Source: Thermoflexia bacterium
Lineage (GTDB): Bacteria > Chloroflexota > Anaerolineae > B4-G1
Direction of reading: 5' to 3'
Length of the DNA stretch: 64,000 nt
Assembly: GCA_011192155.1 (NCBI GenBank)
Contig: DUEK01000002.1
Location: 12,388 to 76,387, forward strand
Below are positions 18,879 to 38,357 of the stretch, one piece after another (within the stretch, counting starts at the first letter, position 1; every line of letters begins with the position of its first letter). The notes below the pieces were generated by a model. The model saw only the letters and a program-made list of their open reading frames with translations, searched no databases and was not told the origin of the DNA. A program made the position numbers and the translations under genes.

Positions 18879-20590
18879 GCAAAGTATCGAGATCAATTCT
18901 CTCCGCGCGCGTGACAAACATCCGCGCCCGACTCGTGGGGAACGTGCTCATTGTTTTGTCTCTGCTTTCCCTGACTGTTGTTCTTTACTCTGCGGCTTTC
19001 TCTCGCCTGGATCAGGCCGTCGTCGTTCTGAAGGAGGCGGTGACGCAACCCGGCGCGCTGATGGTTGAGCAGCAGACCGCCGCTCTTGCAGAGACCGACG
19101 CGGCGCTCAATATGGTGCAGACCGTCCCCATTGTGTGGGGGCTGTTGATTGGGGGCGTGTTTGTGGTTATTGCTTTCACCACCGTCCATTCCATCGCCCG
19201 CCCACTGGAACAGTTGACCGAGGCAGCCGGGCATTTGGCTGCGGGGAATCTGGAGGAGCGGGTGCCGGTCAAGCGGTCAGACGAGTTTGGTAGCCTGGGC
19301 ATTGCTTTCAACGAGATGGCCGAACAGCTTCAGGCCTCCTACGTTGAATTGGAAGACCAGGTGGCCGAGCGGACTCGCGCTCTCCAGGATGCCAACTATG
19401 CCCTCCAGCGGCGGGCTATCCAACTGGAGGCCAGTTCCGAAGTAGGGCAGGCCATCGCTTCCATCTTTGACATAGACCAGTTGCTGCGCACAACAGTCGA
19501 ATTGATTCGCGACCGTTTCAAATTTTATCACGCCGGCATCTTTTTGTTGGACGAGACCGGGAAGTGGGCGGTTCTTCGGGAGGCCACCGGCGAGGCCGGC
19601 GCGCAGATGAAGACCCAGGGCCACCGTCTGGCCGTGGACAACAACAGCATGGTCGGCTGGGCCGCTTTGCATCGCCAGTCTCGCATTACGCTGGACGTGG
19701 GAGAGGATGCTGTTCGTTTCGCCAACCCCCTGCTTCCTTACACCCGGTCAGAGATGAGCATCCCGTTGATGTTCGGCGGGCGAGTGCTTGGTGTATTGAA
19801 CGTTCAATCCATTGAGGAGGCCGCCTTTGACGAGGACGATGTGCGAACGCTGCAAAGTATGGCTAACCAAGTCGCCGTCGCCATCGAGAACGCCCGCCGG
19901 GTCTCTGACGAGGCGGCGATGTTGGAGGCGACCAGCCCCATCTATCGCGCCAGCCGCCACCTAACGACGGCGACGACGACCAGCGAGGTTGCCGACGCGA
20001 TCATCGACTCTGTGGCTGAGACAGGGGCCGACGGCTGTTTGGTGGTAGAGTTTGTGTTCTCTCCTAGCGGCGAGCCTCAGGCCCTCATGTATCGGGGAGT
20101 GTGGCGGCGGGATCGGGAACCCCAGTTCAAACCCGGCCTGCGGCTCCCAATCTCGGAAAGCCCTTTTCCTTTCGAGTTGGTGAGCAATCTGTGGGCGGTG
20201 ACTGATGTGGAGCAGGATAGCCGATTGCCCCAGAGCGCCCGCCGGGTCTTTATGGCGACAGATACGCGGGCGTTGGTCAACATTCCTCTGCGCTCTGGCG
20301 AGGACGTGATCGGTCAGGTCGTTGTCCTGCGTACCACTCCTGGCTCCTTCTCAGATAGCGCCCTGCGCCTATACGAAGTTCTAAGCGGCCAGGCGTCGGT
20401 GGCGCTGGAGCGCGCTCAATTGGTAGAGAGGGCGCAACGACGCGCGCAACAGGAGCGGACGACGCTCCAGATGGTTGACCACATTCGCCGCGCCGTGGAC
20501 GTAGAGCAGGTTTTACAGATCACGGCGGAGCAGATTTCACAGGCGATGGAAGTGCCGCGCGTTTCTATCGAGTTGAGCCTCGAAGAATGA
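18875..20590 (+). CDS. HAMP-GAF-GAF receptor-like protein without a recognisable output domain (paralogue 1; 2 TM, short loop)
   Basis: ATGA overlap with the kinase stop. HAMP 'ARPLEQLTEAAGHLAAGNLEERVPVKRSDEFGSLGIAFNEMAEQL'. GAF1 'FKFYHAGIFLLDETGKWAVLREATGEAG...TRSEMSIPL'. A second full GAF. Family tail 'QRRAQQERTTLQMVDHIRRAVDVEQVLQITAEQI...RVSIEL'. Confidence 0.85.
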   Translation: MSKVSRSILSARVTNIRARLVGNVLIVLSLLSLTVVLYSAAFSRLDQAVVVLKEAVTQPGALMVEQQTAALAETDAALNMVQTVPIVWGLLIGGVFVVIAFTTVHSIARPLEQLTEAAGHLAAGNLEERVPVKRSDEFGSLGIAFNEMAEQLQASYVELEDQVAERTRALQDANYALQRRAIQLEASSEVGQAIASIFDIDQLLRTTVELIRDRFKFYHAGIFLLDETGKWAVLREATGEAGAQMKTQGHRLAVDNNSMVGWAALHRQSRITLDVGEDAVRFANPLLPYTRSEMSIPLMFGGRVLGVLNVQSIEEAAFDEDDVRTLQSMANQVAVAIENARRVSDEAAMLEATSPIYRASRHLTTATTTSEVADAIIDSVAETGADGCLVVEFVFSPSGEPQALMYRGVWRRDREPQFKPGLRLPISESPFPFELVSNLWAVTDVEQDSRLPQSARRVFMATDTRALVNIPLRSGEDVIGQVVVLRTTPGSFSDSALRLYEVLSGQASVALERAQLVERAQRRAQQERTTLQMVDHIRRAVDVEQVLQITAEQISQAMEVPRVSIELSLEE

Positions 20591-22383
20591 TTGGAGTGAC
20601 AGGTGAAATGGACATGCAATCTGTACCTGATTGGGAAAGCGAAATCGAGGACCGCCGCACCACGTTTCTGAATAGTTTACTGTTGGTTGCAGCGGTTGGC
20701 GGTCTAGTGGCGATAGTCCTAACCTACGTCACACTGCCAAAGGATATGACTGTACTGGAACGATGGATTGAGGTAATTCCTTTCCTTGCCGGCTGGTTGA
20801 TCGTGTTGATTATTTGGGCATGGCGCGGTTTGGGTTACAGCACCCGCGCGTTGATTGTACTTCTGATCGTCTATGGCTTGAGTGTCTTCATCTTTCGCCG
20901 AGGGGGACTGCCTGGCAGCGGGCGTGTCTGGCTGTTACTGCTGCCAGCCCTGGCCTTTATCCTGGCAGGCGCACGCCTCGGCATCGCAGCCGGAGCCATC
21001 GGTATCTTGACCTACTCCATCTTTGCCCTTGCTTTTAGTCAAAAGTGGCTGGTTCCTCTAGTATCAGAGGATCAGGTTGCGCTGACGACGTGGTTCAGTG
21101 AGGGAGGCTCCTTCCTGCTTATAACGGCCAGCTTGACGCTAATCTTGTGGTCGTACGGACGGGGTTGGCTGGGGGCACTGGCGAGGATGAGTGCGACCAG
21201 CCAGCAGTTGCAAGTCCAGGCGCAGGAATTGAAGGCGGCAAACGAACAGTTGCGATTGCAGACTTCCCGGTTGCGGACGACAGCCGAGATTGCTCGTGCT
21301 GGCTCCTCTATTTTGGATCCAGAGGCGTTGTGCGCCGAGGTGGTTGACCGAGTCCAGGAAGAATTCGAGTCTATAGGTGTATATTACGTGGGCCTGTTTC
21401 TGCTCAGCGAGATTAGTAGGGACACGGGTGAGCAGTTTGCCGTGCTAAAAGCCGCCACTGGCGAGGCTGGAAAGCTGTTGTTAGAGATGAATCACGAGCT
21501 GGCGCTGGATGACACGACCTTGATCGGGCAGTGCATCGTTCGTCGGGATGCCCGTGTTATATCAAGTATGGAAGAGGATACGGCGCGCTTTGACGCTGTT
21601 CCCATGTCGTACACGCGCTCGGAAGCTGCCCTCCCGCTGCATTCCCGTGGGCGCATCCTGGGCGCGTTGAGCGTGCAAAGTGCGCGGGAAGCATCTTTCG
21701 ATGAGACTGACGTCGCTGTCCTGCAGACCATGGCCGATCAAGTAGCGGTGGCGATTGACAACGCCAGACTCTTCAGCCAGGCTGAGACTGCCCTGGAAGA
21801 TGTTCGGGCCGCTCACCGCCGTTACTTGACCAAGTCTTGGGAAGAATTCCTGGCTGCGGGACTGGTCACTCGGGTGGATTACGCTCAGCCAGGGGCAGAG
21901 TTGGGAGATAGCGAGTTCTTGCGCGATGCGCAGCGTGCTGCAATGGTGCACGAGAGGGCAGTGGTCTTGGATGGCCCACCCCGCACAAAGGGAAGCGAGG
22001 GAGCAGGGAAGCAGGATGAGTATAGGGAAGCGCAGACGGCGCTCGTGGTCCCTTTGAAATTACGAGAGCAAATCATAGGCACAATGACCTTGCACGAAAC
22101 GCGCCGTCAGCGACCGTGGGATGCTGGAGAAATCGCCATGTCGGAAACCATCGCCGAGCAGGTTGCGTTGAGCGTCGAGAACCTGCGCCTGATGGACGAG
22201 GTCCAGCGCCGCGCCGCCCGCGAGCGGCTGGTGGGCGAGATTTCGGATCAGATGCAGCGCGCCACGGATATGGGATCTTTGCTACGCATCACGGCGGAAG
22301 AGTTAAACCGCGTTCTGGGCGGCTCGCGCGCCTACGTGCGCCTGGGCGTGGCGGCAGGGTTAGCCGGCGAGACGGAGCACTAG
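20587..22383 (+). CDS. 6TM-coiled-coil-GAF-GAF receptor-like protein without an output domain (paralogue 2)
   Basis: ATGA overlap. Six hydrophobic helices. GAF1 'VYYVGLFLL...FAVLKAATGEAG...TRSEAALPLHSRGRILGALSVQS'. Tail 'QRRAARERLVGEISDQMQRATDMGSLLRITAEELNRVLGGSRAYVRL'. Confidence 0.85.
   Translation: MIGVTGEMDMQSVPDWESEIEDRRTTFLNSLLLVAAVGGLVAIVLTYVTLPKDMTVLERWIEVIPFLAGWLIVLIIWAWRGLGYSTRALIVLLIVYGLSVFIFRRGGLPGSGRVWLLLLPALAFILAGARLGIAAGAIGILTYSIFALAFSQKWLVPLVSEDQVALTTWFSEGGSFLLITASLTLILWSYGRGWLGALARMSATSQQLQVQAQELKAANEQLRLQTSRLRTTAEIARAGSSILDPEALCAEVVDRVQEEFESIGVYYVGLFLLSEISRDTGEQFAVLKAATGEAGKLLLEMNHELALDDTTLIGQCIVRRDARVISSMEEDTARFDAVPMSYTRSEAALPLHSRGRILGALSVQSAREASFDETDVAVLQTMADQVAVAIDNARLFSQAETALEDVRAAHRRYLTKSWEEFLAAGLVTRVDYAQPGAELGDSEFLRDAQRAAMVHERAVVLDGPPRTKGSEGAGKQDEYREAQTALVVPLKLREQIIGTMTLHETRRQRPWDAGEIAMSETIAEQVALSVENLRLMDEVQRRAARERLVGEISDQMQRATDMGSLLRITAEELNRVLGGSRAYVRLGVAAGLAGETEH
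21985..22000 (+). repeat. 30-nt-family repeat core relic (read as TKGSEG)
   Basis: ACAAAGGGAAGCGAGG within the inter-GAF linker of paralogue 2. Confidence 0.45.
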
Positions 22384-22419
22384 ATCGTCAAAGCTGGATT
22401 GTGGGAAGGGAAGAAAGAT

Positions 22420-24384
22420 ATGAGCGAGTCAGCAAAAAAGCCAGGTTTCGCTACACGCGGCCCCGCCCCGATCAAAGGGAAGCGACGCGGCCCCGCCCCG
22501 ATCAAAGGGAAGCGACGCGGCGTAAGCGTTCGGCTCTTGCTTATGGGAAGTTCGTTTGTCATCATATTTCTGCTCTTGGCGGGTACTGTCCTCAACTATA
22601 TCTTTGTCTTTCGTTTGGCCCAGGCATCGAAGGCGGTGGGTGAGGAGATGGAGCGAGCCAACGCAGCGCTGGAGGTGGGCCGGGCGACGTCTGATTTATT
22701 CCTGGTTCTGGCGCAAGAGGCGTCGAGCCAGGATGCTGTTGACTTTGCCCAGTCTGTGAGAAAAGCCGAGCAGTCATTGATCGAGGTGGAGAAACGGTTG
22801 ACAGAAAGCGCTGCTTCTTTGCCGGTGGACGATCCGGTGCGGATCAACCTCGACAGGCTCGCGACCCGCACCGCCGATATACATACCCTCATAGACCGCG
22901 TAATTGTGCGAGTGGACGCAGGGGAGTGGTGGTATGTCGAGCAGCTCGTGCGAATCATAGTTTACCGTCATCGTATCTCTGTGATCGAATTGGTAGAACA
23001 GATGGGGAACTCAACTTCCGAGCGCCGCCGCGATGCTGAATCTGATGTCGATGCTGCCCGCCTCATGTTGCAGGTGGTTCCTATAGTGGTAGGGTTGTTG
23101 GTCGTCGGTGTGGTTGTGGGTACCGCCTTTGTCACCCATCGCAGTATTTCCAAGCCGGTGGAACGGTTGACCGACGCGGCCACTCGCTTGGCCTCTGGGC
23201 GACTGGAGGAGCGAGTCCCCATTGAGCGGATAGACGAGTTCCGGCGCTTGGCAGTCGCTTTCAACGAGATGACTGACCAACTGGAGGCTTCTTATACACA
23301 ACTGGAGCAACGCGTGGCCGAGCGCACGCGTGGCTTGCAGGCGGCGGCCGCGGTCGGGCGTGCCACTACCTCAATGCTTGACCCAGATCAACTACTGCGT
23401 CGCGTGGTGAACCTGGCCCGCGAGCGGTTCGATCTCTATTACGTAGGGCTGTTCCTTCTCGAAAGCGACTCTGGCCGCACGTTTGCCGTGCTTCGGGCTG
23501 GCACGGGTGAGGCCGGGCGGCAGATGATGGCGCAGGGGCACAGACTGGAAGTTGGCGGCGATTCGATGATTGGTCAGTGCACCTCTATGAACGAGGCGCG
23601 CGTTGCTTTGGACGTGGGCGAAGAAGCTGTGCGTTTCGATAACCCCCTCTTGCCGCAGACCCGTTCCGAACTGGCCCTGCCGCTCGTGGCGCGAGGCCGC
23701 GTCATCGGCGCGATGACCGTGCAGAGCGTGAAAGAGTCCGCTTTCGACGAAGAGTACATCGCCGTGTTGCAGACCATGGCTGACCAAGTGGCGGTGGCCA
23801 TTAACAACGCACACCTCTTTGCCGAGGCCCGGGCCGCACTGGAGGAGATGGCGGCTACTCAACGGCGCTATCTGGGCCAGGCGTGGGCCGAATACACGCA
23901 GACCGCAGAAGAGATTGCCTACGAGACCATGCGTCCGGGCGACGCCCCATTGGGTGACGCTATCCTGCCCGAGATTCAGCAAGTGGTGGAGCGGCGGAGT
24001 ACAGTAGCGTTGCAGAACGCCTCTCACACTTTGGCGCCTTTACATTCCGCTCTGATTTCGCCTATTGCTCTGCGCGGCGAGATTATTGGCGCGCTGGGCG
24101 TCCACGCCGATAAAGAGGATCGGCAGTGGAGCGACGATGACGTTGCCATCATTGAGGCCGTCGTCGAGCGTATGGCTCTGGCTGCCGAGAACATCCGTTT
24201 GCTGGAGGATACCCAGCGCCGCGCTGTCCGCGAGCGGCTGACGAGCGAGGTGACGGCCCGTATGCGCGAGACGCTGGACGTAGACACAGTGCTGCAAACG
24301 GCCATCCGCGAGATTGGAGAGGTACTGGATATTGCCAGGATTAAGGTGCGGATGGGAACTGGGAAGCCACCGATGCCTGAGTAG
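22420..24384 (+). CDS. 4-helix-bundle-like sensor / HAMP / GAF / GAF-like receptor protein without an output domain (paralogue 3)
   Basis: ATG at 22420 (M8 of the track ORF) follows GGGAAGGGAAGAAAG. TM / about 190-aa helical periplasmic domain / TM. HAMP 'ISKPVERLTDAATRLASGRLEERVPIERIDEFRRLAVAFNEMTDQL'. GAF1 'FDLYYVGLFLLE'. Tail 'QRRAVRERLTSEVTARMRETLDVDTVLQTAIREI...RIKVRM'. Confidence 0.85.
   Translation: MSESAKKPGFATRGPAPIKGKRRGPAPIKGKRRGVSVRLLLMGSSFVIIFLLLAGTVLNYIFVFRLAQASKAVGEEMERANAALEVGRATSDLFLVLAQEASSQDAVDFAQSVRKAEQSLIEVEKRLTESAASLPVDDPVRINLDRLATRTADIHTLIDRVIVRVDAGEWWYVEQLVRIIVYRHRISVIELVEQMGNSTSERRRDAESDVDAARLMLQVVPIVVGLLVVGVVVGTAFVTHRSISKPVERLTDAATRLASGRLEERVPIERIDEFRRLAVAFNEMTDQLEASYTQLEQRVAERTRGLQAAAAVGRATTSMLDPDQLLRRVVNLARERFDLYYVGLFLLESDSGRTFAVLRAGTGEAGRQMMAQGHRLEVGGDSMIGQCTSMNEARVALDVGEEAVRFDNPLLPQTRSELALPLVARGRVIGAMTVQSVKESAFDEEYIAVLQTMADQVAVAINNAHLFAEARAALEEMAATQRRYLGQAWAEYTQTAEEIAYETMRPGDAPLGDAILPEIQQVVERRSTVALQNASHTLAPLHSALISPIALRGEIIGALGVHADKEDRQWSDDDVAIIEAVVERMALAAENIRLLEDTQRRAVRERLTSEVTARMRETLDVDTVLQTAIREIGEVLDIARIKVRMGTGKPPMPE
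22456..22520 (+). repeat. 30-nt tandem repeat, about 2.2 copies (read as GPAPIKGKRR)
   Basis: CGCGGCCCCGCCCCGATCAAAGGGAAGCGA at 22456-22485 and 22486-22515, plus a partial copy. Encodes the cytoplasmic N-terminal tail of paralogue 3. Confidence 0.9.
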
Positions 24385-24435
24385 GCGCTGGTGATCTAAC
24401 TACAGAGCTGGATTGTGGAAAGGGAAAGAAGAAAG

Positions 24436-26484
24436 ATGAGCAAATCGTCAGGGCCAATTTCCGCTGTGTCCGTCACCGCGCGCCGCATAAGCATTCGCGC
24501 CTTACTTGTGAGTACCCTGCTCACCGTTCTGGTCTTGCTTTTGCTGATCACTGTTCTCAACTACACGTTTGCAGCCCGCTTGACTCGGGCCTTGTCAGTG
24601 ATGGAGGAAGAGACGGCACGGGCTAGCATAGCGCTAGAGGTGAATAAGGAGGCGGCCAATGTGCTTGCGGCTTTGGCGCAAGGAGTAGTGACCAATGACG
24701 CCGCTTACTTTACCCAGATTGTGAAAGAAGCCGGCCAAGCATTGAGCGATGCGGAGGGACGCTTGGTAGAGAGCGCTGACGCGTTGCCGCCGGATGACCC
24801 GCTGCGAATCAAGCTCTATGGGCTTGCAACCAGCTCTGGCGATATATATCGCCTGACGATCCTCTTGCCCCGGCGGGCAGAGGAGGGAAAGTGGTGGGAG
24901 ATCGAACAGTTTGAGCGGTCGTTGATTCCCTACTATGGACGTTTGGTGACCGAGTCGGCAGACCAGGTGAGAGCGGCGACGGTTGAGCGGCGGGCTATTG
25001 CTGTGGCAGAAGTAGGAGATATTCGCTACAAGATGCAGGTGACCCCTGTGGCGGCAGGACTGTTGATTCTAGTCGTGGCGGCGAGCGCTGTCTTTATCAC
25101 CATCCGCAGCATCGCCCGCCCGGTAGAGCGACTGACTGATACAGTTGCCCGCCTGGCCGCCGGGCGACTGGAGGAACGGGTCAGTGTTGGGGGGGCGGCC
25201 GAGTTTGGCCATTTAGCCACCGCCTTCAACGAGATGGCTGACCAACTGGAGATCTCTTATACCCAATTGGAGCATCGCGTGGCCGAGCGTTCCCGCGCCC
25301 TGGAGCGTCGCGCGGCTTACCTGGAGGCTGCGGCCGAGGTGAGCCGCGCCGCCGCCTCAATATTGGAGACCGATCGGTTGATGCAGCGGGCGGTCGAGTT
25401 GATTCGTGAGCGGTTCGATATGCACTATGTGGGCCTGTTCCTGGTGGACGAGGGGAACGAGTGGGCCGTATTACGGGCTGGTAGCGGCGAGGCCGGACGG
25501 GCTATGCTGGCTCGCGGGCACCGTCTCAAGGTTGGAGAGGGTATGATTGGTTGGAGCATCGCCAACGCTGAGGCCCGCATTGCCTCGAAAGCAGAGACAG
25601 ACACCGTGCGCCTGGTCATACCCGAATTGGCGGCCACGCGTTCCGAGGCGGCCTTGCCCCTGCGCTCGCGTGGCCGGGTGCTGGGCGCGTTGAGCGTACA
25701 GGATGACCAACCTGATGCTTTTGATCAGGATGCCATCACCGCGTTGCAGACGATGACCGATCAGATAGCGGTGGCCCTGGATAACGCGCAGCTCCTGGTC
25801 GCCAGCCAGACGGCCCTGGAAGCGGAGCGCCGCGCCTATGGCGAAGCTAGCCGTCAAGCCTGGGTCGAGTTATTGCGCGCCCGCACCGATTGGGGCTATG
25901 ACTATGAGCACAAATCCGTCACGCCGGCCTATGGCGACTGGGACCCCGAGATGCAGCGGGTTGTTCAGCAAGGTGCAAGTGTGCAGGAAGCCGCTTCGCT
26001 GTCCTTGGATCGGGAGGGGAATGGTGATGGAGAACACACCCTATTCATCCCGCTCAAAGTACGTGACCAGGTGATAGGCGCGCTAAGCTTTTGCAAAGGC
26101 GCGGCCGGCGCAGACCCCACACGATCAAGGGGAAGCGACACAGATCCCGGCCAAACCATCAAACCGTGGACAGCGGACGAGGTCGCTTTGCTGGAAACAC
26201 TGACCGAGCAACTGGGTGTGGCCCTGGAAAGCGCCCGGCTCTACCAGGATACCCAGCGCCGCGCTGCCCGCGAGCGGCTGACCAGTGAGGTCACGGCTCG
26301 CATGCGCGAGACGCTGGATATGGATACTGTGCTCAGAACCGCGACGGACGAAATATATCGAGCATTGGGCCTGGAAAAGATCATCGTTCGCCTGGCGACG
26401 GGAGAGGCGAATGACGAGTCGGCGCTTGGAGATACTACGACCACTGCCCAGAGAGGGCGAACTCTGCAGGAGGAGGTGGTATGA
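24436..26484 (+). CDS. 4-helix-bundle-like sensor / HAMP / GAF / GAF-like receptor protein without an output domain (paralogue 4; tandem duplicate of paralogue 3)
   Basis: ATG at 24436 is preceded by the same leader GCTGGATTGTGG(A/G)AAGGGAA as paralogue 3. HAMP 'IARPVERLTDTVARLAAGRLEERVSVGGAAEFGHLATAFNEMADQL'. GAF1 'FDMHYVGLFLVDEGNEWAVLRAGSGEAG'. Tail 'QRRAARERLTSEVTARMRETLDMDTVLRTATDEI...KIIVRL'. Confidence 0.85.
   Translation: MSKSSGPISAVSVTARRISIRALLVSTLLTVLVLLLLITVLNYTFAARLTRALSVMEEETARASIALEVNKEAANVLAALAQGVVTNDAAYFTQIVKEAGQALSDAEGRLVESADALPPDDPLRIKLYGLATSSGDIYRLTILLPRRAEEGKWWEIEQFERSLIPYYGRLVTESADQVRAATVERRAIAVAEVGDIRYKMQVTPVAAGLLILVVAASAVFITIRSIARPVERLTDTVARLAAGRLEERVSVGGAAEFGHLATAFNEMADQLEISYTQLEHRVAERSRALERRAAYLEAAAEVSRAAASILETDRLMQRAVELIRERFDMHYVGLFLVDEGNEWAVLRAGSGEAGRAMLARGHRLKVGEGMIGWSIANAEARIASKAETDTVRLVIPELAATRSEAALPLRSRGRVLGALSVQDDQPDAFDQDAITALQTMTDQIAVALDNAQLLVASQTALEAERRAYGEASRQAWVELLRARTDWGYDYEHKSVTPAYGDWDPEMQRVVQQGASVQEAASLSLDREGNGDGEHTLFIPLKVRDQVIGALSFCKGAAGADPTRSRGSDTDPGQTIKPWTADEVALLETLTEQLGVALESARLYQDTQRRAARERLTSEVTARMRETLDMDTVLRTATDEIYRALGLEKIIVRLATGEANDESALGDTTTTAQRGRTLQEEVV
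25990..26018 (-). repeat. 30-nt-family repeat, degenerate single copy in antisense orientation (read as ASLSLDREG)
   Basis: GCCGCTTCGCTGTCCTTGGATCGGGAGGG compares with GACGCTTCGCTTCCCTTTGATCGTGAGGG at 34891-35010. Same linker position as in paralogue 8. Confidence 0.5.
26123..26140 (+). repeat. 30-nt-family repeat core, single copy (read as SRGSD)
   Basis: GATCAAGGGGAAGCGACA within a loop of the second GAF-like module of paralogue 4. Confidence 0.55.
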
Positions 26485-30859: not shown

Positions 30860-30898
30860 TCGGCCTATGTATTGCGTATTACTCTCAAGGCGGGAATA

Positions 30899-31660
30899 AT
30901 GACTACAACTATTGCCATCAGCAATCAGAAAGGTGGGGTAGCCAAGACCACCACTTGTCTCTCGTTGGGGGCCTGTCTATCTGAGATGGGCAAGATCGTC
31001 ATGCTCGTGGATATGGACCCTCAGGCCAACCTCACGCTTTCACTGGGATTGAAACCGAAGGAAATGCGTTGCACAGTGGGGGACGCCCTCCTGGGAAACA
31101 ACTCACTGATTGGCGTCAGCCGCGAGAGTCCCGTATACGGTCTGGATATCGTCCCGGCCAATCAAGGATTGGTCATCCTCGATAGAGTTCTCTATGGGAG
31201 GCCCGGCTACCAGTTTCGTCTAAAGAACGGGCTGGATGACGTTGACGAGGGGTTCTATGACTATGTCTTGATTGACTGCCCCCCTTCTCTGGGGACGTTG
31301 ACGCTCAATGCCCTGACGGCAGCCGATCTCCTCATCATACCCATCCAGACTGAGTATTACGCTGCACATACGTTACTTTACTTTATCAGGCTGGTGCAGC
31401 GCGTGCGAGAAAAGACCAATCCGCGCCTGAAATATCGTGTGTTAGTGACGATGTACGACCGGCGTAACAAGATCTATCGCATTATACTTAACCAGTTGCA
31501 GCGCGGGCTGAGCAAGGCGCTCTTTGAGACGATTATTGAGGTAGATACCAAATTGAGGGAAAGCCCGGTGTTCGGTCAGCCGATCACGCTCTACGCGCCC
31601 AAGACTCGTGGAGCTAGACAATACCGCGCCCTGGCCCAGGAGTTGATAAATCATGAGTGA
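30899..31660 (+). CDS. ParA/MinD-family P-loop ATPase
   Basis: Deviant Walker A 'SNQKGGVAKTTT'. 'VDMDPQANLT'. Walker B-like 'YVLIDCPPSLG'. ATG at 30899 (M10 of the track ORF). The stop overlaps the next gene's start by 8 nt. Confidence 0.85.
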   Translation: MTTTIAISNQKGGVAKTTTCLSLGACLSEMGKIVMLVDMDPQANLTLSLGLKPKEMRCTVGDALLGNNSLIGVSRESPVYGLDIVPANQGLVILDRVLYGRPGYQFRLKNGLDDVDEGFYDYVLIDCPPSLGTLTLNALTAADLLIIPIQTEYYAAHTLLYFIRLVQRVREKTNPRLKYRVLVTMYDRRNKIYRIILNQLQRGLSKALFETIIEVDTKLRESPVFGQPITLYAPKTRGARQYRALAQELINHE

Positions 31661-33509
31661 TAATGACCTCCGAGACCATCTCAGCGGATTGTTCTCCGAC
31701 CTATCCCCATCAAAGGGAAGCGAAGCGACTCCCGCCCTCTCAAAGGGAAGCGAAGCGACTCCCGCCCCATCAAAGGGAAGCGAAGCGACTATTGTTCCTG
31801 AACCGGATTCGGAGACGGAGGCAAGGAAAGCGGAATCTCTCTCACTAGAGGAAAGAGTCATTTTCGATCTTGTCGGAGGTGATGCCGCTGGAAGCAATGC
31901 GACGCTTTCCTTCGATCGTGAGTCGCCCGTGGCTGCGCCTGCCGCAGCAGAGCCGGAGGCGGCGGAACCATCTCTATCAGCTCCGGTCGGGCCGGAAGGG
32001 ATTGGAGCGTGGAGGGTCACGCTGGGGAAACGGAGTGTCAGTGTTCTCAGTGTCCTTTTATACGGCGTGATCATCCTTGGAGGAGTGCCCCTCGCCTTTT
32101 TGCTGATTCGCTTCGTTGGGCGGGGAGCGGTGGATTGGTCGGGTTTCCCTTTGTATCTTGGACTATACACGCTGGCCGTCGTCGTCACGCTGGCGCAGTG
32201 GTTGTTCAATTCCTTCTTATCGAAGGCTCTCCAGGAGGCGGAGGGGCAGCGTGACGAGGCGTTTCGCTCTCGGACATCTCTCACAGACCGGGTGCAAAGA
32301 CTGGCTGCCGCCAACGCTTCATTGCAAAAGCGGGCGCTCCAACTTCAGACCGGGGCCGTAATCACTCGCGCCGTCGTCTCAATACTGGAACAAGATGGAT
32401 TGATCCAGGAGGCGGTAAACCTGATCTGTGACCGATTTGATTTCTACTATGTTGGCATCTATATGGTTGACAAAGCTGGCGCGAACACCGATGAGGAGTG
32501 GGCGGTGTTGCAGGCAGGTACGGGCGAGGCGGGCGCTCAGATGTTGGCGCAAGGTCATAGGCTCAAGGTGGACGGCGCATCGGTGGTCGGGCGCTGCATC
32601 GTCAGTGCCCAGGCCCGCATTGCGTTGGATACCACTTTGGCGCAGGATTGGTTGCTGTACGATGATGAGTCGACCGGGCCAAGTGAGGAGGCTGGGCGCC
32701 TTGACGAAGCGCTAGACACTATTGAGCACAATTCGCTGCTGCCAAAAACACGCTCAGAAATAGTTCTGCCCTTGCTTTCTAGCGGCCAGTCCCACACAGA
32801 GAAACGGCGCGACGTGATCGGCGCGCTGGACATCCACAGCGTTGAGCGGGAGGCGTTTTCTGAGCAAGACGTCTCCGTATTTCAGATGATGGCCGATCAC
32901 GTGGCAGCAGCCATTGATAACGCGCGGGCGTTTACGGAAATCCAGGATCGCCTGGGGGAGCTTCGGCGAAGCCGCACACGCGAACAGCGGGCCAGGCTGT
33001 TGTCTCCTCGGCCCATTCCTCTATACGAACGCGCGCAGCCGGGTGTAAGCTCGCTCAGTGGCGATGTGCTATCTGAGATTGAACAGGTTGTGGCGCAGCG
33101 GAGGGTGGTGGTGCAATCCAGTGCAAGTGATGATGGTGGAAAATCCACCCTGGTGGCGCCTGTTGCGTTGCGCGACCAAGTGATCGGCGCTTTGGGGTTG
33201 CAGGAGGTGGGAGAGGGGCGACAATGGACGGACGACGAGGTTGCCCTCATCGAGGCTGTGGCCGATCAGATGGCGCTCGCTATCGAGAACGCCCGTTTGC
33301 TGGAAGATACGCGACGGCGAGCGGAGCAAGAGCAGGTGCTTAACGAGATGACGGCCCGCTTCACCCGCTCTCCTGACGTGAGCGGCTTATTGCGCTCCGC
33401 CGTGCGCGAACTGGGACGCTTGCTCCCGGTCGAAGAGGTGTCGGTCCACGTGGGGCCGCCTGATGAAACCTCCGTGGCGAGCGAGGATGGAGAGGCGAAT
33501 CATGTCTGA
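31653..33509 (+). CDS. Disordered N-terminus / 2TM / coiled-coil / GAF / GAF-like receptor protein without an output domain (paralogue 7)
   Basis: About 130-aa acidic low-complexity N-terminus containing a 3x SKGSEATPA repeat. 2 TM. GAF1 'FDFYYVGIYMVD...EWAVLQAGTGEAG' with extra loops. Tail 'RRRAEQEQVLNEMTARFTRSPDVSGLLRSAVRELGRLL...EVSVHV'. Confidence 0.8.
   Translation: MSDNDLRDHLSGLFSDLSPSKGSEATPALSKGSEATPAPSKGSEATIVPEPDSETEARKAESLSLEERVIFDLVGGDAAGSNATLSFDRESPVAAPAAAEPEAAEPSLSAPVGPEGIGAWRVTLGKRSVSVLSVLLYGVIILGGVPLAFLLIRFVGRGAVDWSGFPLYLGLYTLAVVVTLAQWLFNSFLSKALQEAEGQRDEAFRSRTSLTDRVQRLAAANASLQKRALQLQTGAVITRAVVSILEQDGLIQEAVNLICDRFDFYYVGIYMVDKAGANTDEEWAVLQAGTGEAGAQMLAQGHRLKVDGASVVGRCIVSAQARIALDTTLAQDWLLYDDESTGPSEEAGRLDEALDTIEHNSLLPKTRSEIVLPLLSSGQSHTEKRRDVIGALDIHSVEREAFSEQDVSVFQMMADHVAAAIDNARAFTEIQDRLGELRRSRTREQRARLLSPRPIPLYERAQPGVSSLSGDVLSEIEQVVAQRRVVVQSSASDDGGKSTLVAPVALRDQVIGALGLQEVGEGRQWTDDEVALIEAVADQMALAIENARLLEDTRRRAEQEQVLNEMTARFTRSPDVSGLLRSAVRELGRLLPVEEVSVHVGPPDETSVASEDGEANHV
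31709..31790 (+). repeat. 30-nt tandem repeat, about 2.7 copies (read as SKGSEATPA)
   Basis: (A/C)TCAAAGGGAAGCGAAGCGACTCCCGCCC is repeated, with cores at 31710, 31740 and 31770. Confidence 0.9.
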
Positions 33510-33567
33510 ATGGATGGGTGAACGTTTTGAGTGACGACTGAGCGTTTCACAAAGAGAGGAAACGATA

Positions 33568-35415
33568 ATGTCCAATTGGGTTAAGAGATTCCTTGCCCCG
33601 CCGGTATTTGAGGACGACGAGGATCAGGCGCGTAATGCGGCGTTACTCAACACCCTTCTGTGGGCTACGTTCGGGATAATCGTAGCAGCCGCTCCGGTAC
33701 TGATCATATTCAATACAAGCGCGAGCGGTGTGTTTCTATCCACCGTGATTGTTGTGTTATTCGCTTTGGCAGTCCTGGGACTGATTCGAGTGCTGCATCG
33801 TGGACGTGTGCGGCTGGCAACCATACTCGTGCTGCTTCTTTTATTGGTGATGTTCACTGTCACAATCTATACCTTTGGCGGAATACGCAATACTACTGCC
33901 TCTGGTTACCTCATAGTCGTTTTCATAGCAGGATTGCTTTTGGGTGGGCGCGCCGCGCTCGTGTTTGGTTTATTGAGCATGTTGGGCGCGTTGGGCGTAT
34001 TCTGCGCTGAACGGTATTGGACTATTCCTATTCCGTTTACACCCAAGGTAAATTTTGATGACCTGGGTATGTTGTTTGCCTTTTCTGGCCTGATGGTGGT
34101 ATTGGTAAATCTTGCCCAGCGTAGCATTGTTAGCGCGCTCGAACGCGCCCGGAGCAGCGAGCGTATCTTGGCTGACGCCAACCGAGAACTGCGAGTTGAA
34201 CGTGATGCATTCCAGTCTCGCATCCGAGAGATGGAGCGCCGGTCTAGGCAGTTCCAAGCGGCGGCTGAAGTAGCCCGCGATATCGTTGCTGCTCGTGAAC
34301 TGGGCGACCTGCTGAACCGGGCCGTCAACTTGATCCGAGAGCGCTTTGGGTTCTACCACGCCGGCATTTTCTTGGTGAACGATCAGGGCGAGTACGCCGT
34401 CTTACAGGCAGCCACCGGCAAAGCCGGCCGCCAGATGCTGGAGCAGGGGCACCGGTTGAAGGTGGGCGAGGTGGGCATCGTGGGTTATGTCACTGCGGTG
34501 GGTCTGTCTCGCATCGCCCTGGATGTGGGGGCCGACGCGGTGCATTTCGACAATCCATTGTTGCCGGAGACTCGTTCGGAAATGGCATTGCCGCTTCGCG
34601 TGGGAAAGGATGTCATCGGTGCCTTGGATGTGCAGAGCCGGGACGCGGGGGCTTTTGACGAGGAAGATGTGACTATCCTACAGACGATAGCCGACCAGGT
34701 GGCGGTAGCCATCCAGAACGCCCGCTTGCTCCACGAAGCGCAGCAGACGGTGCGCGAGCTTGAGACGGTCTCTGGGCAATACACCCAAGAAGCGTGGCTC
34801 ACTGAGCGGCCGCGGGGATACCGTTACCGGGGGTTGGGTGTCGAGCAGGTTTTCGAATATCCCTCAGAGGTTCGCCAGGCGTGGCAGCAGGGAGACGCTT
34901 CGCTTCCCTTTGATCGTGAGGGAGACGCTTCGCTTCCCTTTGATCGTGAGGGAGGCGCTTCGCTTCCCTTTGATCGTGAGGGAGGCGCTTCGCTTCCCTT
35001 TGATCGTGAAGGGCGACTCATAACCACTCCTCAACTTGAGGCTGGGGGCGACGGGGGAGAAACTATCAGCAGCCTGGCCGTGCCTCTGAAACTGCGCGAC
35101 CAAGTGTTGGGCGTACTCCACCTGCGCTTTGAGGATGATGCGGCCTCGCCCGAAATGATTTCGCTGGTTGAAGAGATGGCCGACCGCTTGGCCCTGGCTC
35201 TGGAAAGCGCCCGCCTGTTCGAGGAGACGCAATCCCGCGCCCGGCGCGAGCAGACCATCCGCCAGATCACTGAGCAGATGCGCCGTGCCGTGGATGTGGA
35301 GACCATCCTGCAGACTACCATTACCCGCTTGGGAGAGGCCGTGGGCGCGCCTCGGGTCTATGTCCGTCTGGGTACCGGGGTGGAAAAGTTGTCAGATAAC
35401 AATAAAAGGAGTTGA
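33568..35415 (+). CDS. 6TM / coiled-coil / GAF / GAF-like receptor protein without an output domain (paralogue 8)
   Basis: Five to six hydrophobic helices. GAF1 'FGFYHAGIFLVNDQGEYAVLQAATGKAG...TRSEMALPL'. Linker with a 4x 'DASLPFDREG' repeat. Tail 'QSRARREQTIRQITEQMRRAVDVETILQTTITRLGEAVGAPRVYVRL'. Confidence 0.85.
   Translation: MSNWVKRFLAPPVFEDDEDQARNAALLNTLLWATFGIIVAAAPVLIIFNTSASGVFLSTVIVVLFALAVLGLIRVLHRGRVRLATILVLLLLLVMFTVTIYTFGGIRNTTASGYLIVVFIAGLLLGGRAALVFGLLSMLGALGVFCAERYWTIPIPFTPKVNFDDLGMLFAFSGLMVVLVNLAQRSIVSALERARSSERILADANRELRVERDAFQSRIREMERRSRQFQAAAEVARDIVAARELGDLLNRAVNLIRERFGFYHAGIFLVNDQGEYAVLQAATGKAGRQMLEQGHRLKVGEVGIVGYVTAVGLSRIALDVGADAVHFDNPLLPETRSEMALPLRVGKDVIGALDVQSRDAGAFDEEDVTILQTIADQVAVAIQNARLLHEAQQTVRELETVSGQYTQEAWLTERPRGYRYRGLGVEQVFEYPSEVRQAWQQGDASLPFDREGDASLPFDREGGASLPFDREGGASLPFDREGRLITTPQLEAGGDGGETISSLAVPLKLRDQVLGVLHLRFEDDAASPEMISLVEEMADRLALALESARLFEETQSRARREQTIRQITEQMRRAVDVETILQTTITRLGEAVGAPRVYVRLGTGVEKLSDNNKRS
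34891..35010 (-). repeat. 30-nt tandem repeat, 4 copies, antisense orientation (read as G(D/G)ASLPFDRE)
   Basis: GGAG(A/G)CGCTTCGCTTCCCTTTGATCGTGA(G/A) at 34891, 34921, 34951 and 34981. It is the reverse complement of the GATCAAAGGGAAGCGAAGCG core. Confidence 0.9.
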
Positions 35416-35418
35416 GAA

Positions 35419-35781
35419 ATGGCATACGAACTCGAAATGAGAGACGACGGTATTTTGCGGATGGCCTTTATCGGTGATATGGATCAGCAGGACCTGGAAG
35501 CCTTTCGCCAAGAATTTGATCCATTCCTGGAATCGGCCACGGAGGCGGAACCGTTGCGCGTCCTCGTGGATGGCAGCCGGTCAGGAAAATACACGTCGGG
35601 AGCGCGCAAAATCTTTGTTGATCTGTACAGGTCTCTCAAAATAGGGAATGTGGCCCTCGTGGCCGCTCCGCGCTACAGCCGGGTGCTGGTCGGTTTCGTC
35701 CTCAAGGCTACTGGGCGGGATAACATTCATCTTTTTGACTCGGAGGAGGAAGGTTTGGCTTGGTTGAGGGGTGAAAGCTAG
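35419..35781 (+). CDS. Small STAS / SpoIIAA-like protein
   Basis: 120 aa. The alternating beta/alpha pattern 'GILRMAFIGDMDQQDLEAFRQEF...PLRVLVDGSRSG...ARKIFVDL...NVALVAAPRYSRVLVGFV' resembles the SpoIIAA-like/STAS fold. Starts 4 nt after the upstream stop. Family call unverified. Confidence 0.5.
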   Translation: MAYELEMRDDGILRMAFIGDMDQQDLEAFRQEFDPFLESATEAEPLRVLVDGSRSGKYTSGARKIFVDLYRSLKIGNVALVAAPRYSRVLVGFVLKATGRDNIHLFDSEEEGLAWLRGES

Positions 35782-35858
35782 TGGATTGCTGCCCGCCAGT
35801 AGGACAAGATATCACCAACCAAACCAACTAGTAACTATTATTTGTCGAGGAAACGACG

Positions 35859-38357
35859 ATGAGTGAGACCTCACTTGAGGAATATAGACAATTGGTGGAA
35901 AAGCAGGGATGGGCGTTGATGGACATCGTCCAATCCGTGGCTCTGGGCGACATGGACGCAAAGGTTGAGATCCCGGAGGGGATCGAAGTGCTTTCCGAGT
36001 TGGCCGTCGGCGTGGAGATGATGATTGATGATCTTCGTGAGATGTTGGCCGAGCAGGAGCGTGCTGGGGCGGAGTTGGCACGCCGCGCCCTGCAACTTTC
36101 TACCGCTGCCGAGGTCTCCCGCGCTTCCTCCTCCATCCTTCGCCTGGATGAGCTTCTTCCCCAGGCAGTGGAGTTGATCCGCGACCGTTTCAACTTTTAC
36201 TACGTCGGCATTTTCCTGTTGGACGAGGGAGGACAACGTGCGGTGCTGCAGGCCGGCACAGGCGAGGCGGGTCGTCAGATGTTGGAAGCGGGGCATGCAT
36301 TGGAGGTGAGCGATACCTCAATGATTGGTGGGTGCGTCCTACACAAAGAGGCGCGCATCGCGCTGGACGTGGGAGAGGAACCGGTACGTTTCAATAACCC
36401 ATTCCTGCCAGACACACACTCAGAGATGGCGTTGCCGCTGCTCAGCCTGAGCGAGCCCGTTGGCGCGATGACCATTCAGAGCACCAAGATGGCCGCTTTT
36501 AGCGAGGGGGACGTGGCGGTGTTGCAGACGATGGCCGACCAACTCGCCACTGCCATCGCCAACGCCCGCTTGTTCGAACAAACTCAGGCTACCCTGAGCT
36601 ATGCCGAGGCGCTCTACGAGGGCAGCGAGCGGGTGGTGCGTGCCACGACCATAGACGACGTTCTGCAAGCGCTGGTTCACTCAACCTTGTTGCAGCGACT
36701 GACCCGCAGCACTATTAATCTCTTTGATCGCCCATGGGGCGACGAGCGCCCCGAGTCTATGACGGTTGTGGCAGCCTGGGAGCGTGATGCAGCGTCAGCA
36801 GCGCCTGAGGGCAAAAGATTGTCCGTTTCTGTCGGCGTCCGCCACATGCTGGATCAGTTTCCGGCCACGCACTGGTTTGACCGGGATGAGCCGCGCATCG
36901 TGCGGGATATTGCCACAGACGAGCACATAGACGAGCGCACCCGCATCCTGTTCGCGGAGCAGCTTGGCCTGCAGAGCATGATGATTTTTCCCCTGGTTGC
37001 GGGCGAGCAGTGGATCGGTGTTCTCGCGGCGCAAGGTAACGTCGCGCTGGATGTAGGCGAAGCCGAGATTCGCCAGATCACCGCTCTGACCGAGCAGTCC
37101 GCTGCTGTGATTCAGAGCTTGCGATTGCTCCAAGAAGCCCAGACTCGCGCTCACCGCGAGCAGGCCCTGCGCGAGATTGCCGCCGTTGTTGCCGCTAGTA
37201 CAGACCTGGTGGCAGGTTTGCCCGCTATCACTGAGCACTTGTGTCAACTGATCCCCTTGGATGTACTGACCCTGGCTACCTACACCCCCGGCGAGCCGGA
37301 GTATACGCTCTTTGCCTCTCCCAATATGAGGGATAGCGAAGCGGCCCCTTCCAATATGAGGGATAGCGAAGCGGCCCCTTCCAATATGAGGGATAGCGAA
37401 GCGGCCCCTTCCAATATGAGGGATAGCGAAGCGGCTCTTGGCGCAGAGACGAAGGCCGATCACTTTGCCCGACCCGGCATCTATTTGCCGGTGGAGGGGA
37501 CCTGCCCTGGATGGGTCATTACCCATCGGGAACCCTGGCTGGAGGCGGACATTCGCCAGGAGATGCTATTTTTGGAGGATGAGCAACTTGTCTCTGAGGG
37601 AATAATCTCACGATTGTCTTTGCCGCTGTTGGTTGGGGAGCAGGTTGTCGGCACCATCAACCTGACCAGTACACAACCTAGCGCTTTTACTGAGGCGCAT
37701 CTGCTGTTCCTGCAGCAGGTGGCTGACCAGATGGCGTCGGCCCTGGATCGCTCCCGTCTGCTGCAAGAGACCCGCAGCGCCTTGACCGAGGCCGAGGCCA
37801 CCCACCGCGCCTACCTACAACGTGGCTGGCGTGATTATCTGCGCCAGCAAGAAACGCTGCAACAAGGGGCTTTCCTCTACGATCGGACGCAAGGAGCAAC
37901 CGTGCTGGATGGCTTGGCCGAACCCGTTGCCGGGCTTTGGTTGCCAGAGATGGAGCGCGCTCTGGCTGAAGGACTTGTCGCCGCAACCGGGAACGGTGAC
38001 GACGGGGAGCGACGAACGGGATTGGCTATCCCCATTGTCCTGCGTGGACAGACCATCGGCGTTCTGGGCGTGGATGACCCCGCTGGCGAGCATAGATGGT
38101 CTGAAGACGACCGGGCCGTGATCGAGGCGGTCGGGAGGCAATTGGCCCAAGCGTTGGAGAACGCCCGCTTGCTGGGAGAGACCCAGTTGCGCGCGCAGCG
38201 AGAACGCATTATCGGTGACATCGCCAGCCGGGTTCGCGCCTCTATGGATATGAAGAATATTCTACAGACAACCGTGCGGGAACTGGGCATAGCGCTTGGT
38301 ACCGACCGGGCCTTCATCCGGCTGAACCCAGACACACAGCCATCGGAGAAACCCTAA
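35859..38357 (+). CDS. Soluble degenerate-HAMP / GAF x3-4 receptor-like protein without an output domain (paralogue 9)
   Basis: No TM. HAMP-like remnant 'VALGDMDAKVEIPEGIEVLSELAVGVEMMIDDL'. GAF1 'FNFYYVGIFLLDEGGQRAVLQAGTGEAG'. Further GAFs. A 4x SNMRDSEAAP repeat. Tail 'QLRAQRERIIGDIASRVRASMDMKNILQTTVRELGIALGTDRAFIRL'. The stop lies inside a palindromic repeat. Confidence 0.85.
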   Translation: MSETSLEEYRQLVEKQGWALMDIVQSVALGDMDAKVEIPEGIEVLSELAVGVEMMIDDLREMLAEQERAGAELARRALQLSTAAEVSRASSSILRLDELLPQAVELIRDRFNFYYVGIFLLDEGGQRAVLQAGTGEAGRQMLEAGHALEVSDTSMIGGCVLHKEARIALDVGEEPVRFNNPFLPDTHSEMALPLLSLSEPVGAMTIQSTKMAAFSEGDVAVLQTMADQLATAIANARLFEQTQATLSYAEALYEGSERVVRATTIDDVLQALVHSTLLQRLTRSTINLFDRPWGDERPESMTVVAAWERDAASAAPEGKRLSVSVGVRHMLDQFPATHWFDRDEPRIVRDIATDEHIDERTRILFAEQLGLQSMMIFPLVAGEQWIGVLAAQGNVALDVGEAEIRQITALTEQSAAVIQSLRLLQEAQTRAHREQALREIAAVVAASTDLVAGLPAITEHLCQLIPLDVLTLATYTPGEPEYTLFASPNMRDSEAAPSNMRDSEAAPSNMRDSEAAPSNMRDSEAALGAETKADHFARPGIYLPVEGTCPGWVITHREPWLEADIRQEMLFLEDEQLVSEGIISRLSLPLLVGEQVVGTINLTSTQPSAFTEAHLLFLQQVADQMASALDRSRLLQETRSALTEAEATHRAYLQRGWRDYLRQQETLQQGAFLYDRTQGATVLDGLAEPVAGLWLPEMERALAEGLVAATGNGDDGERRTGLAIPIVLRGQTIGVLGVDDPAGEHRWSEDDRAVIEAVGRQLAQALENARLLGETQLRAQRERIIGDIASRVRASMDMKNILQTTVRELGIALGTDRAFIRLNPDTQPSEKP
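37321..37440 (+). repeat. 30-nt tandem repeat, 4 copies, divergent family member (read as SNMRDSEAAP)
   Basis: CCAATATGAGGGATAGCGAAGCGGCCCCTT is repeated four times, the last copy diverging. It shares AGCGAAGCGGC(C/T)CC with the ppk copy at 51993-52031. Confidence 0.85.

Follow-up and report, generated by a model that had tools for sequence, protein, structure and literature searches.

Domains are usually treated as indivisible folding units, and receptors of the HAMP type are dimers. The signalling helix (S-helix) of bacterial receptors was reportedly described by Anantharaman, Balaji and Aravind in 2006. Kinases of the NarX/NarQ type are laid out as sensor-HAMP-S-helix-GAF-like-DHp-CA (PMC8199190). 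This layout is common to a kinase paralogue and to the N-terminal halves of nine sensor proteins (T1 to T9) encoded in the window analysed here, the whole 64,000-nucleotide stretch of contig DUEK01000002.1 from a Thermoflexia bacterium (assembly GCA_011192155.1), whereas in the T proteins DHp-CA is replaced by a second GAF-type module and a short conserved tail. We find that this tail, which closes kinase-less Anaerolineae GAF-array sensors throughout the family, is a C-terminal end-piece under selection and no accident of truncation.

All nine tail-bearing open reading frames (ORFs) lie on the forward strand between 18875 and 38357 (Table 1). When the GAF of the kinase paralogue heading the array was aligned with the first GAF domains (GAF1) of the nine T proteins, its DHp was found to start where the T proteins go on into their second module and tail. 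Pfam searches found an MCPsignal domain in none of the nine, and homologues of the T proteins carry the annotation ‘GAF domain-containing protein’ only. Direct reading of the T proteins shows a classical A-E-R-T-R motif after HAMP. The ParA/MinD-like ATPase inside the array is placed likewise in 12 of 66 related loci, where same-strand arrays of tail ORFs reach up to 10 per 20 kb and arrays are flanked by kinases. Among the 8–9 GAF domains of the giant hybrid kinase there is one reduced GAF-like module, in an internal position, and the extension that follows the tail of T6 is built from 30-nt repeats.

Table 1 Features of the receptor array in window coordinates; each tail lies on the strand of its gene. 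In T1, HAMP and GAF were assigned by Pfam and the long second GAF-like domain by direct reading; T2 to T7 rest on ORFs and Pfam.
Feature	Coordinates	Strand	Domain content	Tail	Extension after tail (aa)
Kinase paralogue heading the array	16275..18878	+	dCache-HAMP-GAF-HisKA-HATPase		
T1, kinase-less sensor	18875..20590	+	HAMP, GAF1, full-size divergent second GAF, tail	20435..20581 (tail HMM 71 bits)	2
T2	20587..22383	+	MASE11, GAF1, reduced GAF-like module, tail	22204..22350	10
T3	22399..24384	+	HAMP, GAF1, reduced GAF-like module, tail	24214..24360	7
T4	24415..26484	+	HAMP, GAF1, reduced GAF-like module, tail	26254..26400	27
T5	26481..28451	+	Cache-like, HAMP, GAF1, reduced GAF-like module, tail	28221..28367	27
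T6	28448..30859	+	HAMP, GAF1, reduced GAF-like module, tail	30530..30676	60
ParA/MinD-like ATPase inside the array	30872..31660	+			
T7	31653..33509	+	GAF1 with insert, reduced GAF-like module, tail	33312..33458	16
T8	33568..35415	+	Membrane N-terminus, GAF1, reduced GAF-like module, tail	35230..35376	12
T9	35859..38357	+	Apparently soluble; three GAFs, reduced GAF-like module, tail	38184..38330	8
Giant hybrid kinase at the array end	38411..45463	+	2 PAS, 8-9 GAF, HisKA, HATPase, 2 REC		

The tail is an alignable 49-aa segment that closes each of the nine T proteins and is followed by a variable, non-conserved extension of 2–60 aa. A first-pass annotation of this DNA had noticed a tail of ~50 aa shared by the nine paralogues and a short variable extension after it; both observations hold, and its coordinates agree with the recomputed ones to about 10 nt, whereas its 47-position consensus pattern proved approximate, with 0–4 mismatches per tail and a perfect fit in one of nine. 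A tail HMM scores 71–85 bits at the nine C-termini, self-matches that are expected of a model built from these same tails, versus at most 18 bits at the N-termini of the window’s other GAFs. In reference numbering taken from T5 and used for model and alignment, the tail spans 293–341. A polar, strongly conserved stretch, D-T-Q-R-R-A-x-R-E-R, leads from the helix that closes the last GAF-type domain into the tail, with nine consecutive polar residues at 294–302, and the tail is conserved across all helix faces.

Profile comparisons indicate that the tail corresponds to the first two helices and the first strand of a GAF of the phytochrome/cyanobacteriochrome class, the rest of the domain being absent, and that GAFs of this class are its closest relatives. 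The Pfam GAF model aligns to the tail at profile positions 1–41 of 133, below threshold, and a tail profile run against PDB sequences matched the first ~45 residues of solved GAFs, always at the GAF start (8w26, E=5.9e-12; 6oap, 3e-11; 2lb5, 6.6e-8; then 6bhn and 3oov; range to 1e-5), both in agreement with the first-pass proposal that the proteins stop one third of the way into a GAF. Tail HMM matches in giant multi-GAF relatives also fall on the starts of complete GAFs. The likeness to the N-terminus of the family’s own GAF1, on which that proposal had drawn, can be aligned but is weak: the T-protein tails align with positions 7–51 of a GAF1 HMM (domain E 0.003–0.5), whereas the tail HMM yields at most 10 bits on the T proteins’ own GAF1.

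Over ~45 residues the tail shares R..E, I.....R.SLD, L.T.V.E and RV.V with the N-terminal thirds of solved GAFs (2lb5/8w26 SyB-Cph1, the dual-sensor kinase 6oap, 6bhn and 3oov). Those structures continue with strands 2–6 and helices 3–5 in one fold, whereas the tail chain ends 2–60 aa past strand 1 and is modelled by AlphaFold as two helices (or one) plus coil; compared with the GAF domain (PF01590/PF13185), the tail thus has the N-terminal homology and lacks the complete alpha/beta fold of ~130–150 aa with its 5–6-stranded sheet. Because T18, T34 and L42, which contact the rest of the fold in 6oap and 2lb5, are kept, the tail shows no sequence sign of adaptation to standing alone. Our searches found neither a Pfam family nor a paper describing it, and with no separate Pfam domain matching, it does not appear to be an already described small domain, an outcome that the first-pass annotation had held against its own reading.

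The same ending occurs in 120 of the 120 homologues listed, with the C-terminus 4–67 aa past the tail. In the 66 related loci, drawn from Anaerolineae/Thermoflexales MAGs of about 50 genomes, 371 ORFs have a last module match that reaches the tail end; 368 of these end no more than 80 aa further on, and 339 no more than 30 aa. Conservation is 2.4 bits at L341 and drops sharply just past the strand, the extension having about 0.3 bits, in a 485-sequence alignment whose high information content is partly recruitment bias, two search patterns lying in or beside the tail. Conservation across the nine paralogues of the window is no higher in the tail than in GAF1 (41% versus 44%). Pooled dN/dS values for tail, GAF1 and reduced module are 0.24, 0.22 and 0.33, respectively; in the four orthologue pairs that are clean (T2, T5, T6 and T8), pN is 0.03–0.06 in the tail versus 0.08–0.23 in GAF1. 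The tail is under purifying selection, in line with the earlier argument that an incomplete domain conserved in this way has a function.

Within the family, the tail and the kinase core exclude each other: 34 of 150 giant multi-GAF relatives end in the tail, 93 have a kinase core and none has both. The tail occupies the site of the DHp hairpin in the kinase members. It resembles this hairpin (HisKA) in its place after the last GAF helix and, in one model, in its helix-turn-helix form, but it has no HisKA match, phospho-acceptor histidine or catalytic domain, so that the likeness is positional, not homologous; HisKA matched neither the tails nor the whole T proteins, and the tail alignment contains no conserved histidine. 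The tail comes after a full-size GAF in T1 and likewise in 18 of the 34 giant proteins that end in it, and is therefore no missing part of the reduced module. T7 is chimeric with respect to two adjacent genes of locus L009, its body coming from one and its tail from the next, and comparison of T3 with its orthologue gives an identity of 0.45 in the tail versus 0.88 in GAF1.

Two AlphaFold monomer models, of T5 residues 287–640 and of the C-terminal 199 aa of T3, disagree on the helices, helix 1' and helix 2' being split by a turn in T5 and forming a single 65-residue helix in T3. The tail strand forms no beta-bridge in either model, yet is predicted at a pLDDT of about 80–85 in both. Predicted helices span 48–65 residues, with a 3.5-residue periodicity in 268–292 that is absent in 293–315, and no output domain follows downstream. 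By mean-field DCA (about 300–420 effective sequences, with intra-chain and homodimer contacts inseparable), about 25 of the top 60 couplings are internal to the tail, with position sums of ~631 for helix 1'/helix 2' and ~663 for helix 2'/strand and an offset of ~26 for helix 1'/strand; its elements coevolve as a zig-zag of helix up, helix down and extended segment up. The best pair joining the tail to the rest ranks 87th, with no detectable tail coevolution with the preceding domains, and the reduced module has its own first strand, coupled to its last (206–257, top-ranked). Neither the two models nor the coevolution show the tail packing back on the preceding module, which the first-pass annotation had named as a finding that would overturn its view.

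Our preferred reading, to which we give an even chance, is that kinase-less sensors end their signalling helix in an autonomous tip module, the tail, which stands where the kinases have their DHp. In a parallel receptor dimer, two tails would form the membrane-distal tip, which would terminate and clamp the signalling helix; since the T proteins have no other output domain, it could be the state of this tip surface that a partner protein reads. The tail would dock to such a partner, most plausibly one of the co-encoded GAF-array histidine kinases, with the embedded ParA-like ATPase as a second candidate.

It is unlikely, in our judgement, that the tail is a passive structural cap, a short folded stop that keeps the GAF C-terminal helix helical and dimeric without signalling or docking, the sensors acting otherwise, for example by buffering ligand or by forming mixed dimers via HAMP/GAF. 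Such a cap would suit a tail that follows any type of last GAF, is swapped between paralogues and carries no tail-specific motif that we could find beyond complete GAFs, and the internal-only coevolution would fit a self-contained plug; it accounts poorly for 49 residues conserved on all helix faces with the polar run at 294–302, for a constraint above that of the sensor GAF in clean orthologue pairs and for an extended segment, unneeded in a cap, that is conserved to L341. Quite unlikely, too, is fragment complementation or hetero-oligomerisation, the idea put forward in the first-pass annotation, in which the tail completes or adds to a GAF of a paralogue or of the giant kinase and so couples sensors to kinase. 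Every conserved residue of the GAF N-terminal third is kept, including those that pack on the missing two-thirds, the T proteins lack an output domain, the arrays are co-encoded with GAF-rich kinases, and the tail strand, despite its pLDDT of about 80–85, is left unpaired in both monomer models. Against this, none of the ORFs in the window and the 66 related loci (~1 Mb) opens with the missing two-thirds of a GAF, the search for truncated GAF starts returning two matches, an assembly gap and a frameshifted fragment; moreover, the GAFs observed in the flanking kinases all come with an N-terminal segment of their own, internal contacts fully explain the tail’s coevolution signal, and the exchange of tails between paralogues speaks against paralogue-specific pairing codes.

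That the tail instead supplies the helix and strand absent from the reduced module, by back-packing in the same chain or in a swapped homodimer, as in a circular permutation, strikes us as very improbable. Of the N-terminal helices of a normal GAF, the preceding module does lack the second, the Pfam match there covers profile positions ~57–133 only, and couplings 286–298, 280–301 and 273–312 share a centre, as in an antiparallel fold-back. However, these three pairs sit in nearly invariant columns with few informative variants, the module’s first strand already pairs with its own last, couplings between tail strand and module strands all rank no better than about 130, the tail strand is unpaired in both AlphaFold models, and complete GAFs also precede the tail. 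We attach almost no credence to a non-functional remnant or gene-calling artefact of recombination in multi-GAF genes; tandem paralogues recombine and the break falls within a domain, but 368 independent ORFs from about 50 genomes end near the same point, and the conservation data, with a dN/dS of 0.24 and the sharp fall just past the strand, refute this reading.

In hundreds of sensors without an output domain, which lie in conserved, kinase-flanked arrays of up to ten or more genes, selection has kept a third of a GAF as the C-terminus. If the tip is the output, as in our preferred reading, it would show how kinase-less sensors address kinases in a large class of bacteria that has been little studied, and would offer a small natural module for engineering receptor–kinase coupling. 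If it serves as a cap only, it marks where GAF arrays can end cleanly, and even then it merits a separate family model in domain databases.

The model of GAF1, helix and module aligns to tandem-GAF structures (PDE2A, PDE5A, CyaB2 and phytochrome GAF-PHY). As in tandem GAF arrays, the last helix of one domain runs into the first of the next, but in the T proteins there is no next domain and the connector ends as a three-element stub. S-helices, heptad helices of ~40–50 residues with a conserved polar core motif, join a sensor to an output domain. Like them, the T-protein helix is long and bears a conserved polar motif between modules; the tail differs in its motif, Q-R-R-A-x-R-E, in having nothing downstream and in lacking core hydrophobics at residues 291–302. 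In a broader reading that we regard as improbable, the tail-ended proteins would form an as yet unrecognised class of kinase-less receptors in large tandem arrays, with the truncated-GAF tip as their sole output and with docking or complementation coupling many different sensors to a few GAF-array histidine kinases, and the ParA-like ATPase, often found in the receptor arrays, might position them; such a system would be the GAF-based counterpart of a chemoreceptor array that serves a single kinase.

Nine kinase-less receptor ORFs, T1–T9, lie on the same strand of the window, and their C-termini can be aligned over 49 residues (hereafter the tail), after which each protein carries a further 2–60 residues of unconserved extension. 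A hidden Markov model (HMM) built from the nine tails scores 71–85 bits at all nine C-termini and at most 18 bits at every other GAF N-terminus of the window, confirming the shared ending described in the first-pass annotation. The tail coordinates reported there lie within about 10 nt of those re-derived here, and its 47-position pattern fits all nine tails, albeit with 0–4 mismatches in each.

Tail-ended receptor ORFs and 30-nt repeats, in window coordinates
Feature	Coordinates	Strand	Tail
T1 ORF	18875-20590	+	20435-20581
T2 ORF	20587-22383	+	22204-22350
T3 ORF	22399-24384	+	24214-24360
T4 ORF	24415-26484	+	26254-26400
T5 ORF	26481-28451	+	28221-28367
T6 ORF	28448-30859	+	30530-30676
T7 ORF	31653-33509	+	33312-33458
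T8 ORF	33568-35415	+	35230-35376
T9 ORF	35859-38357	+	38184-38330
30-nt repeat array	22455-22521
30-nt repeat array	30679-30819
30-nt repeat array	31705-31790
30-nt repeat array, opposite orientation	34889-35017
30-nt repeat array	37314-37435
Repeat core, single copy	16760
Repeat core, single copy	26124
Repeat core, single copy	40479
Repeat core, single copy	45463
Repeat core, single copy	52003

The Pfam GAF model aligns to the isolated tail over positions 1–41 of 133, below threshold, and a profile of the nine tails matches solved structures nowhere but at the beginning of GAF domains of the phytochrome/cyanobacteriochrome class (8w26, E = 5.9e-12; 6oap, 3e-11; 2lb5, 6.6e-8; then 6bhn, 3oov and others). 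Together these matches bear out the proposal that the tail is one third of a GAF. It is no previously described small domain as far as Pfam extends, which holds no model for it and returned no other matching family. In giant multi-GAF relatives, full-length tail-HMM matches fall on the starts of complete GAFs, and one of them (P0264) has, after an internal reduced module, a tail-like segment that runs on into a complete GAF. The earlier comparison with GAF1, the first complete GAF of each T protein, was right in kind but is not the closest available: the GAF1 HMM aligns to the tail weakly over positions 7–51 (domain E 0.003–0.5), and the tail HMM scores at most 10 bits on the proteins' own GAF1.

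By Pfam, the T proteins begin with a sensor/transmitter part, which includes HAMP in five of them, MASE11 in T2 and a Cache-like domain in T5; GAF1 comes next, and then a partial second GAF match covering profile positions ~57–133 only. This second, reduced GAF-like module spans about 90 residues in T2–T9 (for example, window 27849-28220, residues 199–292 of the T5 model, whose numbering is used below) and is missing two parts of a normal GAF, namely the second N-terminal helix and the helix 3/strand 3 region. No cytoplasmic part is less conserved than its core, where paralogues share 26% identity. In T1 a divergent GAF of full size takes the place of this module. In an AlphaFold model of T5 residues 287–640 (mean pLDDT 87.9), a canonical GAF1 is followed by a 52-residue helix and then by the reduced module, which consists of a short hairpin (204–213), one helix and three further strands, one very short and then two long. 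After it come a helix (268–315), a second helix (317–332) and coil (333–342). The Foldseek neighbours of this model are GAF and tandem-GAF structures. In the T3 model (pLDDT 83), helix 5 and the tail helices 1' and 2' form one 65-residue helix. The tail strand is without a beta partner in both models.

Mean-field direct coupling analysis (DCA) of 485 module sequences and of the 335 most complete GAF1-to-tail sequences, with effective numbers of 422 and 298, respectively, recovered the expected GAF contacts. Among the top-ranked pairs was 206–257, joining the hairpin and last strand of the reduced module, which therefore has its own first strand. Approximately 25 of the top 60 couplings fall within the tail (293–341), while the best tail-to-rest pair ranks only 87th. 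Residue numbers add up to ~631 in helix 1'/helix 2' pairs, which implies a turn at about residue 316, and to ~663 in helix 2'/strand pairs; in helix 1'/strand pairs they differ by a constant ~26. The tail couplings are thus geometrically coherent and describe a zig-zag of helix up, helix down and strand up. The couplings of residue 320 with 334–338 are odd for a monomer. The 206–257 coupling, the lack of tail–module couplings and the two AlphaFold models led us to reject a circular permutation, in which the tail would complete the reduced module. Three pairs (286–298, 280–301 and 273–312) hinted that helix 1' folds back antiparallel on helix 5, but they involve nearly invariant columns and were discounted as unreliable.

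At the junction (residues 291–302, Y-Q-D-T-Q-R-R-A-A-R-E-R in T5), hydrophobic side chains are almost absent, yet conservation is highest. The hydrophobic core of the tail begins at L303 and continues through 307/311/315, then 317/320/321/324/325/328/331/332 and finally 334/337/339/341. The junction resembles a polar hinge or register element, which may be comparable to the polar motifs of signalling helices, and precedes a small three-element core.

The view of the tail as a conserved incomplete domain holds. Identity among the nine paralogues is 41% in the tail, 44% in GAF1 and 26% in the reduced-module core, and pooled dN/dS against the syntenic array locus L009 is 0.24, 0.22 and 0.33, respectively; four orthologue pairs are clean (T2, T5, T6 and T8), and in these tail pN is 0.03–0.06 versus 0.08–0.23 for GAF1. 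Paralogue identity and orthologue dN/dS thus mark the tail as a selected element. Conservation in the 485-sequence alignment reaches 2.6 bits per column in helix 1' and remains high as far as L341 before collapsing in the extension. It partly reflects recruitment bias, because two of the search patterns lie in or next to the tail; the case for selection rests on the orthologue dN/dS instead. Given this bias and the similar paralogue identities of tail and GAF1, we dropped the notion of exceptional tail conservation. An apparent adaptation to standing alone (I18 to T, I34 to A, F42 to L and more Arg in terminal than in internal tail-like segments) likewise failed its controls: other lineages supplied 72 of the 76 internal segments, R+K totals are equal, and T18, T34 and L42 also occur in solved complete GAFs.

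Tails have also moved between paralogues. In T7, GAF1 and the reduced module match L009 gene 13617 at identities of 0.64 and 0.61, whereas the tail matches the next gene, 15360 (0.84 versus 0.41), and identity reaches 0.96 in the helix just before the junction, so that T7 looks, from these comparisons, like a recombinant of two adjacent paralogues. Between T3 and its L009 orthologue, identity is 0.88 in GAF1 and drops to 0.45 in the tail, which in T3 resembles those of T4 and T5. These mismatched tails point to exchange between tandem paralogues, with the crossover probably in the conserved helix immediately before the tail, and argue for a generic rather than paralogue-specific role. The T3, T4 and T5 tails share only 45–66% third-position identity, so recent gene conversion between them is unsupported. 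Separately, five receptor genes contain in-frame 30-nt tandem repeats of 2–5 copies. Four of the five arrays share the core ATCAAAGGGAAGCG, which, allowing one mismatch, occurs 18 times in the window (0.03 expected) in both orientations and different reading frames, as if it were a small expanding or mobile 30-bp element tolerated inside coding sequence.

Among the matches listed for the C-terminal module, 120 of 120 homologues end 4–67 residues past the tail. An exhaustive profile search with a cut-off of E < 1e-30 gave 12,668 cluster representatives; the best 150 (P0121–P0270) are proteins of 1,100 to ~3,950 residues (longest 3,952) with up to 21 consecutive GAF-type units. Within these 150, 34 (about a quarter) are tail-ended, the tail being preceded by a reduced module in 16 and by a longer GAF in 18; 93 carry a histidine-kinase core, and none has both. 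A genome scan queried with a single protein, with two of its search patterns in or beside the tail, found 66 loci, every one in Chloroflexota MAGs of Anaerolineae, Anaerolineales and Thermoflexales. In 371 ORFs of these loci the last module match reaches the tail end, and 368 stop within 80 residues (339 within 30). They are arrayed on one strand, with as many as 10 in a 20-kb locus, and kinases lie at the array ends wherever these are visible.

The window follows the same overall plan: a kinase (16275), six T genes, a ParA/MinD-like ATPase gene (AAA_31, CbiA; 30872-31660), three T genes and a giant hybrid kinase (38411), then a PLP-enzyme–REC fusion and a REC-kinase. A ParA-like gene also lies within the array in 12 of the 66 loci, and the ATPase might position receptor clusters. 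Overlaps of 4–8 nt between successive array genes, with the stop inside the next start (18875/18878, 20587/20590, 26481/26484, 28448/28451 and 31653/31660), suggest one operon with translational coupling. The PALP-family enzyme with its C-terminal receiver domain (45432-47141) overlaps the end of the giant kinase, and in the related locus L016 such a fusion likewise comes after the kinase. Just downstream of the signalling cluster, polyphosphate kinase 1 adjoins a metallophosphoesterase–Ppx/GppA–HD fusion (49914-53460, minus strand).

The tail is an autonomous, conserved and exchangeable C-terminal unit derived from the N-terminal third of a GAF; it continues the last GAF helix, occupies the DHp position of the kinase paralogues and is mutually exclusive with the kinase core. 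We postulate that in a parallel dimer two tails would form a distal tip ending the signalling helix, and that this tip would be read by a partner protein, since the T proteins have no other output domain; candidate partners would be the flanking GAF-array kinases and the ParA-like ATPase. Taken as a whole, we give this reading about an even chance.

That the tail is a purely passive cap seems unlikely to us. Docking by fragment complementation would fit a tail that keeps exactly the residues of complete GAF N-thirds, but the window and ~1 Mb of related array loci hold no ORF starting with an N-terminally truncated GAF (of the two matches, one was an assembly gap and the other a frameshifted fragment), which leaves it quite unlikely. 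Packing of the tail back onto the preceding module, raised in the first-pass annotation as the end of any intermolecular role, is very improbable, with the strand unpaired in two AlphaFold models and the best tail-to-rest coupling 87th; that so selected an element is a non-functional remnant is scarcely credible.

Searches of the literature for circularly permuted GAFs, truncated or partial GAFs and Chloroflexi/Anaerolineae GAF-HAMP proteins returned nothing relevant, neither a truncated-GAF terminus nor such arrays, and the source databases name tail-ended proteins only "GAF domain-containing protein". What is new relative to known GAF proteins is a GAF-derived end-piece on kinase-less GAF-array sensors, of high interest if its tip proves a docking output and of moderate interest otherwise.
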